NCBI GenBank assembly: GCA_964394325.1
Contig: CAYMVT010000001.1
Span: forward strand, 1-29,136
Length of the DNA stretch: 29,136 bases
From: an uncultured Candidatus Peribacteria bacterium
Lineage (GTDB): Bacteria; Patescibacteriota; Gracilibacteria; Absconditabacterales; Absconditicoccaceae
Direction of reading: 5' to 3'
In this document: positions 7 through 20,600 of the stretch, in pieces
Layout of the letters: every line of letters starts with the position of its first letter
How positions within the stretch are numbered: position 1 is the stretch's first letter
Position numbers and translations under genes: made by a program
The notes under the pieces: model-generated
Database searches by the model: none
What the model was told of the DNA's origin: nothing
Seen by the model: the letters and a program-made list of their open reading frames with translations, nothing else

Positions 7-80
7 AGGCACCGGCCGGATTCGAACCGGCGAACCAAGGCTTTGCAGGCCTGTGCATTAGACCACTCTGCCACGGTGCC
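7..80 (-). tRNA. tRNA-Cys (GCA)
   Basis: The reverse complement folds as a cloverleaf: GGCACCG/CGGTGCC acceptor stem, CT-GCA-AA anticodon loop, GCCGG-TTCGAAT-CCGGC T-arm, and U73 discriminator (the Cys identity element). No CCA is encoded. Confidence 0.97.
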
Positions 81-4072: not shown

Positions 4073-7618
<3,546 letters not shown>

Positions 7619-7651
7619 GTTTGTTAAGTTAATATTAAATTTATAAATAAC

Positions 7652-7684
7652 ACAAAAACAACCCTAAACTAAAAGGGTGTTTTA
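7652..7684 (-). terminator. Possible intrinsic terminator/attenuator between rpmH and rpoB
   Basis: On the minus strand, AACACCCT-tttagttt-AGGGT(T)GTT forms a hairpin followed by a T-run. Confidence 0.4.
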
Positions 7685-7763
7685 GTAACAATATATTATT
7701 AGTGCAAATATGTTGAACAAAAAAATAATAGCATATTTTCGTGCCTTATTAAAAAACAAAAAA

Positions 7764-7919
7764 TTATTGCTTTGAAACTGTTAGTTTATGTCTACCTTTT
7801 GATCTCCTGTTTTTTATAACATTCCTTCATGTCCTAGTAGACATTCTACTCAAAAATCAATGTAATCTTTTTCTCTTCAACCACTTATATTTTCTAACTC
7901 TGTTTAATTTTGAAGCCAT
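7764..7919 (-). CDS. rpmH: 50S ribosomal protein L34 (51 aa)
   Basis: [51 protein letters not shown] matches the L34 pattern KRKRxHGFxxRMxTxxGRxVxxxRRxKGRxxLTV. Two of its three Gly are TGA. Confidence 0.93.
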
Positions 7920-12401: not shown

Positions 12402-13754
12402 CTAATTAGCACTTCTTTCTCTAAATTCAATTAATATTGGGCATCATATAAATCAAAAATTTTTTCTCAAAGTGTTTATTATTCGTTTTTTAAAAGCAAA
12501 ATTTGCTCGATCCTTTTTGTTTATAAACACAAAAAACTTTGGTGGAGCAGATTGGACTTGAGTCATATAATATATCTTACAAATTTTATTTTTGGTAAAT
12601 TTTGGAGGATTTTCGATTAAAGCTCTATTTATTGTTGTATTCAATTTTCATGTATTAATTTTTTTGTTGAAATGTCATTGTATATCCTCTGCAAACTTTA
12701 ATAATTTATCTAGATTATAGCCACTGGAAGCTGAAATCTGTATTATCGGGACATGACTTATAAATGACAATAATTGTGTTATTTGTTTCATTTTCATAAG
12801 CAACTCTTTCTTTTCCAAAAGATCAGACTTATTTAAAGCTATTATCATAGGCACATTTAATTTTTCTATTTTTGAAATAATTGTTTTATCGTTATGAGTA
12901 ATTCAATTATATACATCAATCAATATTATTGCTACAGGATTTTTGTATTGTATAAGCTTTTCAGTCTTGTTCATAGCAATCTTTTCAAGTCATTTTGTTT
13001 TTGATCTCTTTTTGATTCCTGCTGTATCATACAACACAAATTCAGTTCATCAAAATTCTACATTTGCTTTTATATAATCCAGAGTTGTTCCAGCAGTTTC
13101 TTTCACAGTAGAAACCTCATCTTGTGCAAACTTATTTATCAAGGTAGATTTTCATGTATTTGGAGCTCACACAAAAATAACAGACAAATAATCACCTTCT
13201 TTTTCATTGATAGGCGAAAAGTTATTTTTGATTATATATTTTTGGATAAAATCCTTCAGCTTATCTATTCATTGATCATTGATTGCGCTTACTGGAATGA
13301 GATTATCAAATCATAAACTATAAAAATCTGACACATGCTGCAAGACATCTCCAGAATCATTAGACTTTTTTCTGTTTTTAATATTTCTTGAATGTACTTT
13401 TCAATCAAGTTTATTTACAACAAGAACTGTCTTGTCTTTTTTTCATTCCTTAATTATCATTTCCTTGATCTGTTGATCTTTGGATGTAAGTCATTTTTTG
13501 GCATCCAAAACAAAAATGAGCAAATCACTTTTTTTTATTATTTGCTTTATATATTCAACTTCTTGCTGAAAATCTTCCAATCAAGGACTATCATACAACT
13601 CGGCCAAAAAGTCTTCTTTAGGAAAAAATTTTTCACTTAGTATCTGTCTTGTTGTTCAAGGCATTTCAGTGATTATAGCTCTATGAGATCAAATCAGCTT
13701 ATTAAATATTGTTGATTTACCAGCATTTATATTTCATATTATTCATACCTTCAT
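12402..13754 (-). CDS. der: Ribosome biogenesis double GTPase Der/EngA (450 aa)
   Basis: Two G-domains (GNINAGKST...GTTR...DSPG...NK.D and GAPNTGKST...GTTLD...DTAG...NKSD) followed by a KH-like C-terminus (YYMTQVQSAPPKFFVF...LRKNFGFIGCPI). Confidence 0.95.
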
Positions 13755-14515: not shown

Positions 14516-14735
14516 GGAGTCTGCTTTTAAAACCCATAATTTACATATATTTGTACAGTGCAAGCAACCTCCAAAAAAACTAAAGCATTGTAAACAAAAT
14601 ACATTTAAAGAACTCGCCCTGTGGAATATTAAAATGTTCTTCACCAAATTCCACAAGGTAAGAACTTTTCCTTTAAATTAAATTAGAGAGAAATTTTGAT
14701 GCTTTTTAAACACTCTCTAATTTAATTTAATTTAA
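14516..14735 (-). repeat. Structured intergenic element, copy 1 (homologous to 17184-17349)
   Basis: Contains an 18-bp perfect inverted repeat (14673-14690 / 14713-14730), an 11-bp helix (14617-14627 / 14648-14658) and a 3' hairpin (14562-14572 / 14516-14526). A 28-mer is 24/28 identical to copy 2. Confidence 0.75.
14527..14604 (-). CDS. Putative small peptide, 25 aa (MYFVYNALVFLEVACTVQIYVNYGF)
   Basis: ATG..TAA frame inside element copy 1. It is homologous to the 29-aa ORF in copy 2 and starts in the same TTCTTTAA-ATG context. There is no evidence of translation. Confidence 0.3.
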   Translation of the reverse strand: MYFVYNALVFLEVACTVQIYVNYGF

Positions 14736-15775: not shown

Positions 15776-17122
15776 TTATTTTTTGCTATTTTTTTTTGAT
15801 TGCAAAGACTTGTAATTTTTGTGCACAAAAAAATAAACAAGCCCAAAAATGGTCATACTTGGATACACTACCATCCTATCTACAAAACCGTGTAAAACCA
15901 TTCATTCTATACTAAGTCAAACCATCCCCAAAGACATAGCCAACAAAAGCCAAGGCCAAAAATCTTTTCTTTGTTTTTTATCAAATTTATAAAAATAGTA
16001 ATAAAAACCAATCAAACATAAAAACAAATAAATAACAAACCAAAAAATAAATCAGACAATTCAATATTGAACCAAGATCAACAAAAATTGATTTTCTGGA
16101 TTAAATTCTATTCAATCTCATCGATGTGATACAGGTCATACATACCCTGCCTGAGATCACAACACAGGAGCTTGAGTAAACATCTGCCAAGATTCTTGAA
16201 CTTTTTGGAAATGTCATGTATCAGACCACTGTCTTTGGACTACTTGGTCATATCCCACATACACAAAAACAGAAAAAACAAGCAATATAGGCAAAACTAA
16301 ATATACTAACTTTTTCCTAATATTTCTACCATATTCCAAAAGCAAAATAACCAACAATTGGAAAAACCAAGCTCACCATGCAGCTCTTGAAAAAGTACTA
16401 ATTATACTAAAAACATAAAGCACCCACCAAAGCCATGTTTTTGATACAGCTCTTCTTCTCAAAAATAAAACATAAAACATAGGAAAGAAAAACACCAAAA
16501 AAAATCAATAATTAATAGGTCTTTCAAAAAGAACTTGATTACGAGGAAAACCCTGATTTTGTTGTGTATAATAAACTGCTGGAGGAGCCTTTCATACTTC
16601 TCATTCAAATATCTTGTTATCATAACCCAAAGGTCATAATGCTCAAGGCTTTACCATTATTAACATATACCAAAAAAAGGCTATTACCAGCAAAACTTTG
16701 ATAGTCTTTCAAAAAAAGAAAAGTATATTTTCTATTTGCTGATCTTCCAAAAAATTTCATAAATGATAAAAAAGGAAAAAAATCACAAATCACAAAAAGT
16801 CATACCTAAAAGCCATCACATAATCAGACAAACTTGTTCATAGAACAAAGAAATTTATAATAAAAGTCAGTACAACTCATGTAATAAATGTTAGCTCCAA
16901 AAAAAGTATAATTTTGTCTTTTACTATATCTTGTAAATACAATTTAAACTGATAAGCTAAGAAAAAAGCAAGCAAAAGAATTAATATCTCCTTCCAAAGT
17001 CGCAAAATAGTAAATTCCAGTCAGACACCAAAAGTTATAAATGTTTGTAAAAAAAAATGAAAAATCATACCAACCAAAAAAACTTTAGCCCAAAACGAAA
17101 CTGAGAAAAAAACCTTTTGCAT
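15776..17122 (-). CDS. O-antigen ligase / Wzy_C-like polytopic membrane protein (448 aa)
   Basis: Many transmembrane segments, with STFSRAAW, SDTGH...W...QAPVLG.....G and PENQFLLILVQYGIVG. These match the T.SR..W, P.LG.G.G and HN..L..L.E.G.VG patterns, with E in place of the usual His. Confidence 0.78.
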
Positions 17123-17183
17123 TATAATTTATAATATTTTAAGTAAATTTTTTAATAATTTGGTTTAAATTTTTGACACTTTT

Positions 17184-17349
17184 TTAAATAGAGGCCACTT
17201 AAAAAGTGGTAAATTTGGCCTCTAATTTAATCAAAAGAAAAAGATCCATATTCTTTAAATGCAGTTATTTATTGCATTTTCGTTTTTCTTAGAGACTGCT
17301 TGCACTTTACAAGAATATGGAAATGAATACTTTTCAAGCAGTCTCTAAA
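17184..17349 (+). repeat. Structured intergenic element, copy 2 (inverted relative to copy 1)
   Basis: Contains a TAGAGG(CCA).../(TGG)CCTCTA hairpin with inner CCACTT-aaa-AAGTGG, a 14-bp perfect inverted repeat (17289-17302 / 17335-17348) and a crossing helix (17245-17263 / 17301-17321). It aligns to copy 1 over about 160 nt. Confidence 0.75.
17259..17348 (+). CDS. Putative small peptide, 29 aa (MQLFIAFSFFLETACTLQEYGNEYFSSSL)
   Basis: ATG..TAA frame inside element copy 2. FLETACTLQEYGN aligns with FLEVACTVQIYVN of copy 1. Confidence 0.3.
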   Translation: MQLFIAFSFFLETACTLQEYGNEYFSSSL

Positions 17350-17404: not shown

Positions 17405-17550
17405 AAAAAAACCAAGGGGTCGTGGTACTTATTATCTCTACCCCCTATCTACAAAGTGGATGGCTCGATTCTGACAAGTCAGAATATACCGGCCTCCTTT
17501 ATTATAGTTGATGTGGAGGAGATAAAGATAAGCTCACCAACCCCTTAGGA
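17405..17550 (-). ncRNA. Rod-shaped ~145-nt ncRNA, 6S RNA candidate
   Basis: GC-richer than its surroundings. The ends pair into a long closing stem (AAGGGGU..UGGU..CUUAU..UAUCUC with the 3' end), then a central unpaired region, then an apical stem AUUCUGA-CUUG-UCAGAAU. G-U pairs favour the minus strand. It has an upstream TTGAAA-N16-TATTAT and a downstream U7. Confidence 0.55.
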
Positions 17551-17557
17551 TATTTTC

Positions 17558-17585
17558 ATAATATGAATTTAAAAAAAATTTTCAA
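17558..17585 (-). promoter_or_regulatory. Candidate promoter of the rod-shaped ncRNA
   Basis: TTGAAA (17580-17585), N16, then TATTAT (17558-17563). The -10 ends about 8 nt before the start of the RNA helix. Confidence 0.45.
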
Positions 17586-17657: not shown

Positions 17658-20600
17658 TTAAAAAAATCAGTCTACTCTAAAAGGGATAGAATATCTATAC
17701 AAAAGTTCTCCATCTTGATCGTAAAGTCAAGCTCTTATATGATCACCAACAACTATATCTCATTCATAATCAGCATAATGACATGGACAAGACATACAAT
17801 TAATAGCAGAGATTCAAGCTTGTTGTTGTATAAACTGTGGAGGGAGTATTTCATCGTCTTGATCATCTTCATCGTCTTCATCAATATCATCCTTTTCATT
17901 AACCACAACCTGAATGCTGTTTTGTAGCACAGCTCATTCTTGTAAATAGATTGTCTGAACAACATTAAAACTTCATGAATTATTATAAGCATGTTTTTTT
18001 TCTATTTCATCTATTTCAAGTTGAGTTCAATCTCACATATCCCATTCTACATTTTCTATTTGTTCTTGAGTAAATCAAGTAATATCTGTATAAAAACTTA
18101 TTTCCTGATCTATTATAGGTTGTGCTTCATTTACAGACAATTCAGATCAATATCAATCCTGCTGATCATCATCAACAACTGATATATTAACTTGACTTTC
18201 TCAGACAGTTTCTCAATTTTCATCATATCAAACTGCTTTTACAGTATAATTTCAAATTTCTGTTAATTCAAAATTTAATTCATCATCTGGTCATAACTGA
18301 TGTTCATCTCAATTAATCTCCCATACAACATGATCAACATCTCACTGATAATCTACAGTACAGTTAAATTCCTGTGGTGTAAAACCACTTAGAGGGTCAC
18401 ATTTCGCCTGCAAACTAATCCCTATAGCATCCTCATCGTCTTCATCGTCTTCTGTATCAAACATATCCGAACATGCATCTCCTATACCATCTCAAGTACT
18501 ATCAATTTGATCAGGATTATCATGAAATGGACAATTATCATAGTCATCATTATCAGAAGCTAAATTGTGTTGCTCTTGAAGTCTTGATAAATCCAAGTTC
18601 TCCTCATTATAAACACACTCACCATCCTCAACTATTTCATGAGTTATCAATCACAAAAGATTTTTATTACCATCCCCAGATATATCTGAATCACAAATAT
18701 CAGGAATTCAGTTTCAATTCATATCACATTGAAATTCTTCTGAAAGCTCATCAGGAGGTTTTGCACATATATTTTCACCAAATACATTGATTGTCAAACT
18801 GGCTGTAAGAACTCAAGAACCATCATTTTTGTAAACATACACCTTTATAGTATAATCTCAACTTGAATTATAAACATGTGTCATAGACAAATTAGATTGC
18901 CAATCTTGATAATGTTCCTCAATAGTTCAATCTCCAAAATTCCATTTTATTTTACTAATTTTTTCACTAGCAAGATTTTCTAAGTTGGCCTGAAAATTAA
19001 AATTAGTTCAAACTTCAGCGGATAGTTTATCTGCATCCAAATCAAGACTTGGCAAAGAAGATCAATCCTGAATTACATTGATTGTAACAACATCTCTTAG
19101 CAAAGTTCAGTCATCAAGATTGATTTGTTGAATAACTTGATAAGTTCAATAAGAATCAAAAGCATAAGAAGGTGATAATTGATCCAAACTAAAACTATTC
19201 CCATCTCACATATTCCAGTAAATAGATGATATATCATCTTCAGTAAATCAACTAATATTTGTATCAAAATTTATTTGTTGTCAAACCATGGGTTGTAGTT
19301 CATCTACGCTTAATTCAGATCAATATCAATCCTGCTGATCATCATCAACAACTGATATATTAACTTGACTTTCTCAGACAGTTTCTCAATTTTCATCATA
19401 TCAAACTGCTTTTACAGTATAATTTCAAATTTCTGTTAATTCAAAATTTAATCCATCATCTGGTCATAACTGATGTTCATCTCAATCAACCTCCCATACA
19501 ACATAATCAACATCTCACTGATAATCTACAGTACAGTTAAATTCCTGTGGTGTAGAACCACTTAGAGGGTCACATTTCGCCTGCAAACTAACTCACTCCT
19601 GTCAAGATCAAACATTAATCATCAAACTAGCACTAACAGTTTCTCAATTCGGTTTTTCTCAAGTGGCTACAACTGTATAAATACCTTCTGAAGTATAAAC
19701 ATTACTTGGAGAGTGTCACACTCAATAAGTTCAATCTCCAAAATTCCACTGAATATTTTGTATATCTCCTACAATTTCAGCAGAAAAATTTACATATAGA
19801 TCTGCTATACCGCTAGTTTTATCAGCTGATATATCAAATCAAAATTCTTCAAATTCTTCGCAAACACTAGCATCTTGATCAGGATTATAATGTAATGGAC
19901 AAACATCTTCTCACTCTCCCCATAAAGTTGGATCAATATTTCATTGGTCATCAACCAATCAAACTGGATTTTCGTATCAATCCCCAGATATGTCTGAATC
20001 ACAAACATCTCCCACTCCATCACCATCCATATCTGATTGATTAGGATTGTAATGATAAGGACAATTATCCAGATGATTTTTGACTCAGTCTCAACTATAA
20101 TCCAAGTCAAAATCACAATCAACTATATCAAAAGTTCTACTTGAAAATTTAATCAAATCTTGTCAGGAAATAAAGTCATCCATTTGAAGTTCAGATATTT
20201 CATCATTGGAAAATATACCAAAATCATCAAGAACATTCATTTCTGCCACAGGCCACTGTCATTGAGGAATATCTGGATAAGCACTAAATCAACAATCAAA
20301 AAGATTAAAAGTACAATATTTCATATAAGTTGAAAATTTTTCATAAGAATTAGGACTACAACCAATACTTCAACACCTATCATATTCTTCATTTATATTT
20401 TGAAGATCATTAACATTTAAGTATTGATACTCAAAACTGTCTTCTTCCAAAGAATCCAACCATCACTTTACTTCTTGCCAGTTTACATCATATTCTTGAT
20501 AAACATTTTGTCTTGTAATATTAAAAATAGCTTGTATAAATTCTGAATATGTTGTATTATTCGCTCAGCAAAACTTACCAGGACACCAAGGTGAGGTATC

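Follow-up and report, generated by a model that had tools for sequence, protein, structure and literature searches.

6S RNA is a widespread bacterial RNA that mimics an open promoter and restrains RNA polymerase. In its longer representatives, such as those of E. coli and B. subtilis, the upstream arm of the molecule carries a -35-like region. Shorter forms have been described as well. With ~160 nt, the 6S RNA of Aquifex aeolicus is cited as belonging to the shortest 6S RNAs known, and a length below 150 nt was taken by one study as a reason to exclude 6S candidates (PMC9130861); the ~148-nt RNA described here would fall just under this limit. Truncated derivatives of the B. subtilis 6S-1 RNA, reduced to the central bubble plus a short arm on either side, retain binding, templating of short product RNAs (pRNAs) and release in vitro, with an affinity that is lowered about 10-fold. 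Because these truncated RNAs complete the 6S cycle in vitro (PMC8876501), a compact natural 6S RNA is plausible. We found no literature linking 6S RNA with CPR or Patescibacteria. The locus analyzed here, from an ultra-small bacterium of this group, very probably encodes the one 6S RNA (ssrS) of the organism; the gene is compact, with ~148 nt, has a sigma-70-type promoter of its own and ends in a U-tract.

The window and its host genome

The window, i.e., the whole stretch of 29,136 nt that was analyzed, belongs to an assembly of 0.94 Mb in 116 contigs and is AT-rich, with a G+C content of ~29%. Long open frames are seen in it only when TGA is read as a sense codon. TGA accounts for 5.2% of the codons in eight long frames of the window and stands at the invariant P-loop glycines of the Der/EngA GTPase (Table 1), and GGN codons are depleted in the window (0.05% for GGC and 0.22% for GGG); the genome therefore reads TGA as glycine (table 25). 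This is the code of Gracilibacteria and Absconditabacteria. All runs found in a search of sequencing data were DNA runs, from metagenomes of soda lakes and salt lakes, with no RNA run listed; the window, and with it the RNA locus, is present in those from soda lakes.

At gathering thresholds, the sole Rfam match of the window is a tRNA gene (64 bits), whose G+C content of 64% stands out against the 29% background and whose anticodon loop, read from the alignment as CUGCAAA, gives the anticodon GCA (Cys). The upstream neighbor of the RNA gene encodes a surface protein with PKD and TSP3 domains. This gene contains a direct repeat of 300 nt with 88% identity and several shorter repeats besides, and is an internally duplicated domain array.

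Table 1. Positions of the RNA gene, its parts and other features of the window (window coordinates).
Feature	Position	Strand	Basis or remark
Compact RNA gene, very probably 6S RNA (ssrS), ~148 nt	17405-17554	(-)	RF00013 match and own covariance models
-35 hexamer TTGAAA, context GTCTTGAAAA	17585-17580	(-)	sigma-70-type consensus scan
-10 hexamer TATTAT	17563-17558	(-)	sigma-70-type consensus scan
RNA body	17554-17406/5	(-)	
5' strand of closing (downstream) arm	17548-17515	(-)	closing stem 17548-17529, internal loop 17528-17523, P2 17522-17515; pairs with 17445-17412
5' strand of central bubble, 17 nt, ACAUCAACUAUAAUAAA	17514-17498	(-)	
Apical (upstream) arm, 14 modelled pairs and internal loop	17497-17458	(-)	CUUG loop 17478-17475
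CC, last two residues of apical arm before ACYUUG	17459-17458	(-)	
3' strand of central bubble, 12 nt, ACUUUGUAGAUA	17457-17446	(-)	opens with ACYUUG
3' strand of closing arm	17445-17412	(-)	P2 17445-17437, internal loop 17436-17432, closing stem 17431-17412
U7 tract directly after closing stem	17411-17405	(-)	probable transcription end
PKD-domain protein gene, 1111 aa	17658-20993		upstream neighbor of the RNA
Direct repeat in PKD-domain protein gene	18030-18329 and 19203-19502		300 nt
Putative MITE copy	~17183-17349		between U-tract and Wzy_C gene
Inverted partner of one MITE hairpin	14662-14725		64 nt, 70% complementary
Wzy_C (O-antigen-ligase-like) gene	15776-17122		other side of the RNA unit, beyond putative MITE
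Der/EngA GTPase gene	12402-13754	(-)	TGA at P-loop glycines
tRNA gene	7-80	(-)	Rfam match

A rod-shaped RNA with its own promoter

The original prediction, made from the letters alone, had proposed a standalone, rod-shaped RNA of ~145 nt, with a TTGAAA-N16-TATTAT promoter and a U7 end. Such an RNA is encoded on the minus strand of the window, with a length of ~148 nt rather than 145, and both the promoter and the U7 tract are present. The two hexamers agree with the sigma-70-type consensus at 10 of 12 positions and are separated by a 16-nt spacer; going only by spacing, transcription would start at an A around 17553-17551. The genome also encodes an RpoD-like sigma factor, whose score of 276 bits lies below the 354-bit cut-off of TIGR02393.

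The fold of the window's copy is more stable than expected by chance: a 156-nt stretch has a minimum free energy (MFE) of -55.6 kcal/mol, versus -36.1 +/- 3.9 kcal/mol for 200 shuffled sequences (z -5.07), none of which folds as well as the RNA. The comparative model derived below is an unbranched rod of 40 pairs without any branch point. As foreseen, the window's copy has in this model a closing stem of about 25 bp with bulges (25 pairs for closing stem and P2 together), a central unpaired region, here a bubble of 17 and 12 nt, and an apical stem capped by CUUG. The MFE fold of the window's copy closes part of this bubble through a 6-bp CUAUAA/UUGUAG pairing.

A full-length match to the 6S family

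The locus was searched with the Rfam 6S and SRP models at relaxed thresholds, as had been suggested along with the prediction. The 6S model RF00013 matches at 44.2 bits (E 1.2e-7) over model positions 1-187, i.e., from end to end, a score 2.2 bits short of Rfam's gathering score (46.4 bits); the next best Rfam families at the locus have E values above 0.1. In the RF00013 alignment, ~33 nt of the consensus distal apical arm are absent from the window's RNA. In the same alignment, the counterpart of the consensus CCCACCU is the ACYUUG stretch together with the CC that precedes it, at a high posterior probability.

Orthologues located by BLAST, or by a covariance model built in this analysis, were scored with the same Rfam model. 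Eight of them lie above 46.4 bits, namely three BLAST homologues (51.1, 46.8, and 46.6 bits) and five other loci (49.0, 48.9, 53.1, 50.9, and 46.8 bits), and thirteen further loci give full-length, sub-threshold matches of 31-44 bits at exactly the same coordinates. Among the loci tested, 21 have a 6S match, and their scores range without a gap from 31 to 53 bits. This continuum ties the window's RNA to the curated 6S family. It is also clear that the curated RF00013 model under-detects the compact form: most of these RNAs fall just under its threshold, with 8 of the 21 matched loci passing, and standard annotation omits them for this reason. There is nothing unusual about the kind of gene; it was simply overlooked by standard annotation in an ultra-small bacterium that reads TGA as glycine. 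Extending the RF00013 seed with these sequences would mend this annotation gap.

One could argue instead for a conserved small RNA that resembles 6S in its rod shape only, and that has a function other than polymerase sequestration. Several features would fit such a view, i.e., the position of the window's copy and of most orthologues under the Rfam threshold, the short length of the RNA and the truncation of its upstream arm. Against it, the 6S match spans the whole model and agrees in sequence at the conserved bubble motif, the scores run without a break up to the eight orthologues that pass the curated threshold, and the structure is unbranched. We therefore regard this other function as improbable, and a 6S RNA as the better account of the locus.

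An SRP RNA of the 4.5S type is hardly credible. With E<=10 as the limit, the locus has no match to any SRP model, compared with 1.2e-7 for 6S, the apical loop is variable in relatives rather than a GNRA loop, and the AGCA and GGAA motifs of SRP domain IV are lacking, just as the original prediction had noted. What could be cited in its favor is that no RF00169 match is found in the organism's own genome or in four relatives, and that two crude motif-plus-fold scans of the whole genome found no SRP candidate. The RF00169 result in these five genomes carries little weight, because the same genome search also missed the 6S RNA with RF00013; limited sensitivity of the search, and not divergence or loss of the SRP RNA, may explain why no match was seen.

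Conservation and covariation among relatives

A BLAST search of 60 related genomes with a 206-nt unit found clear homologues in six other genera (68-80% identity), and two partial ones. When sequences from nine genera were aligned with MAFFT, without any structural model, the RNAalifold consensus contained 40 pairs, 20 of which show compensatory changes. When a covariance model built from this alignment (R1) was run on 141 genomes of the family, 99 of them, representing 35 of 43 genera, each gave exactly one full-length match; the RNA measures 143-155 nt across the family. The window's copy scores 156.2 bits with R1 and 146.4 bits with a broader model made from 32 sequences (R2), and is the single match in its whole genome. 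R1 gives 19.1 bits to the opposite strand, versus the 156.2 bits above, and this low score, along with the many invariant U-G pairs, identifies the minus strand as the coding one. Of 151 genomes sampled across the class, 65 have a single copy according to R2; by family, this corresponds to 14/14 in the organism's own and to 15/15, 10/15, and 10/13 in three others. Weaker R2 matches of ~140-165 nt occur in 10 genomes belonging to other classes of the phylum.

The pairs of the model are well supported by these relatives. In alignments of 30-32 sequences, 90.8-91.5% of cells form standard pairs, a share that drops to 39-51% if the 3' partners are displaced by 1-3 columns, and compensatory changes are seen in 31-33 of the 40 pairs (31 with the R1 set of 30 sequences); none of 500 shuffles reached any of the covariation measures. 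The alignment of R1 matches is fitted to the model and leans towards it, and the independent MAFFT result agrees with it. Covariation extends to both arms. Compensatory changes affect 18 of the 25 pairs of the closing stem and P2 (30 sequences). In the apical arm, each of the 7 distal pairs covaries, as do 4 of the 6 that adjoin the bubble. The sequence of the apical loop is itself variable (CUUG, UCCUG, CUAG, UUCG, and others), with no conserved GNRA. Together with the full-length RF00013 match and the eight orthologues above threshold, this covariation supports the identity as a compact 6S RNA that had been proposed.

The central bubble behaves differently from the arms. No covariation is found between its strands in the 30-32 sequences, and the one pair modelled there forms in just 47-59% of them; the bubble is taken to be unpaired for this reason, although the window's copy can form the 6-bp pairing mentioned above. 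Likewise, a 3-bp CUU/GGG helix proposed by RNAalifold in the 3' bubble strand shows no compensatory changes, and when 29 orthologues were refolded with a block on the putative pRNA-binding stretch, neither a bubble-collapse helix nor a 3'-bubble hairpin was shared by the family. Among 30 orthologues, the 5' strand of the bubble measures 11-17 nt and the 3' strand 10-16 nt. The 5' strand contains a moderately conserved AUCA. Of all unpaired stretches in the RNA, the ACYUUG of the 3' strand is conserved best, with its C present in 29 of the 30 sequences, and its Y and U in all 30.

An independent gene in a variable neighborhood

The signals that border the RNA are conserved along with it. In about three-quarters of 37 orthologous loci, a -35 element of the TTGAAA, TTGCAA, or TTGAAT type is followed 16-18 nt later by TATAnn, just upstream of the RNA, and almost all of these 37 loci have a run of T behind the closing stem. 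The genes nearby are more variable. The atpB gene lies directly downstream in 11 of 64 orthologous loci, with its start ~40-100 nt away, and a small gene for an RNHCP-domain zinc-ribbon protein (PF12647, 82 bits in one case) occupies this position in 15 of the 64. The latter is a second recurrent synteny besides atpB. At one orthologous locus, the U-tract of the 6S RNA is immediately followed by a run of N, which makes the neighbor unreadable. In the window, the RNA is followed by a putative MITE copy and then by the Wzy_C gene. Since the promoter and the U-tract are conserved while the neighbors vary, the RNA is an independent gene.

These observations also bear on the possibility of a cis-acting element, whether a terminator forming the 3' end of the PKD-domain gene that lies upstream, or a leader serving the atp operon. 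The short distance to atpB in 11 of the 64 loci and the U-tract directly after the closing stem are what such an element would predict. Its probability is nonetheless very low: the RNA has its own conserved promoter and matches the 6S family, its neighbors differ between loci (the RNHCP-domain gene in 15 of them, Wzy_C in the window), and the organism's own atpB, located on a different contig behind a separate promoter, is not accompanied by the RNA. This atpB gene lies on contig 43 (region 6935-7910), 244 nt from the contig end. Its promoter reads TCTTGAAT-N17-TATAAT, with an extended -35 context, GTCTTGAA, that is identical to that of the 6S promoter; neither a 6S remnant nor a MITE was found in the region upstream of it.

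The putative MITE lies 56 nt past the 3' end of the RNA, which points towards it, in agreement with the convergence on a second copy of a repeated element that had been noticed originally. It consists of two hairpins with AGAG...CUCU ends, one of which has an inverted partner elsewhere in the window (Table 1). Its proximity might suggest that the RNA is itself a part or an end of this MITE, or of some other mobile element. This is about as implausible as an SRP RNA. The RNA has exactly one match in its genome, and one per genome in relatives, where it is kept next to other genes; in addition, BLAST of the 206-nt unit against the organism's own genome returned just short, AT-rich chance matches elsewhere. 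The copy number in particular excludes a mobile element. For the original prediction, a match to another family, a mobile-element end, or a lack of conservation would have spoken against 6S; the locus showed no match to another family and no mobile-element end, and the RNA is conserved in relatives. The putative MITE occupies the place that atpB has in close relatives, and may mark a rearrangement that parted the 6S gene from atpB.

A possible mode of action

Transcription of the RNA, its binding to polymerase, pRNA synthesis, and a physiological role can be proposed by analogy with E. coli 6S and B. subtilis 6S-1. As in these RNAs, the rod with its 17/12-nt bubble would mimic an open promoter and lodge in the active-site cleft of the housekeeping holoenzyme, and this binding would hold the polymerase back as growth slows. 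Once nucleotides return, the polymerase would copy the 5' strand of the bubble and then that of P2 into a short pRNA, and this copying would unzip P2 and free the enzyme. By the same analogy, the 5' bubble strand would be the start of the pRNA template in the window's RNA; a pRNA started opposite U44 would read 5'-AUGUGGAGGAGA.

The shortening of the RNA is confined to its apical, upstream arm, the downstream arm being of normal length, and the shortened upstream arm may not contain a full -35 mimic. A more ambitious reading is that this is a natural, minimal 6S RNA, which has given up the distal, -35-mimicking part of its upstream arm and relies mainly on the bubble and the downstream arm to capture polymerase. 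In that case, nature would have arrived at an equivalent of the truncated 6S-1 constructs and fixed it throughout a class of TGA-recoded, ultra-small bacteria, with an extension to other Patescibacteria. We propose this tentatively, as a reading that has a real chance of being right but that we would not yet favor. If true, these RNAs would be among the shortest natural 6S classes, and even episymbionts with genomes below 1 Mb would keep global control of their polymerase.

The identification of a compact 6S RNA does not change what is known of how 6S RNAs work, and has implications mostly for the bacteria that carry it. 6S RNA is a global regulator of transcription, and its conservation as a single copy in Patescibacteria that have genomes of less than 1 Mb and read TGA as glycine suggests that growth-phase control of polymerase has been kept in these reduced and probably host-dependent bacteria. 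In many relatives, the 6S gene abuts the ATP synthase operon, an arrangement that could couple the two. The naturally shortened upstream arm additionally offers a ready means to test what amount of RNA is required for the 6S mechanism.

Comparison with known systems

Among known structured RNAs that bind polymerase, the Ms1 RNA of Actinobacteria shares a central bubble with the window's RNA. Ms1 is, however, ~300 nt long, with additional hairpins at its ends, and its binding partner is the core polymerase instead of the holoenzyme (PMC9130861), and neither this size nor these hairpins are seen here. An assignment to Ms1 was rejected, as the window's RNA is a single rod of ~148 nt without additional 5' or 3' hairpins.

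The truncated B. subtilis 6S-1 RNAs (PMC8876501) have a layout that this natural RNA seemingly approaches. They are laboratory constructs, with the ~10-fold loss of affinity mentioned above; here, in contrast, the shortening affects just the upstream arm and leaves the downstream one at full length. The 6S RNA of A. aeolicus (~160 nt; PMC9130861) offers a natural parallel, being likewise a shortened 6S RNA of a small, condensed genome. The RNA described here is shorter still, with 143-155 nt across its family, and belongs to an unrelated lineage.

The closest counterparts are the 6S/SsrS RNAs themselves (RF00013), as exemplified by E. coli 6S and B. subtilis 6S-1. The window's RNA differs from these by its length (~148 nt versus 184-203 nt), the ~33 nt of distal apical arm that are gone corresponding to the -35-like region. 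It differs as well by its host, a Patescibacteria lineage recoded to read TGA as glycine, and by its surroundings, with no ygfA-type synteny and, in relatives, a frequent location directly upstream of atpB or of the RNHCP-domain gene. What it shares with them is the overall design, that is, an unbranched rod with a closing arm of ~25 bp, a central bubble of ~16/12 nt and an apical arm, a 3'-strand motif that aligns to the consensus CCCACCU, and a single gene per genome transcribed, as its signals suggest, from a promoter of its own.
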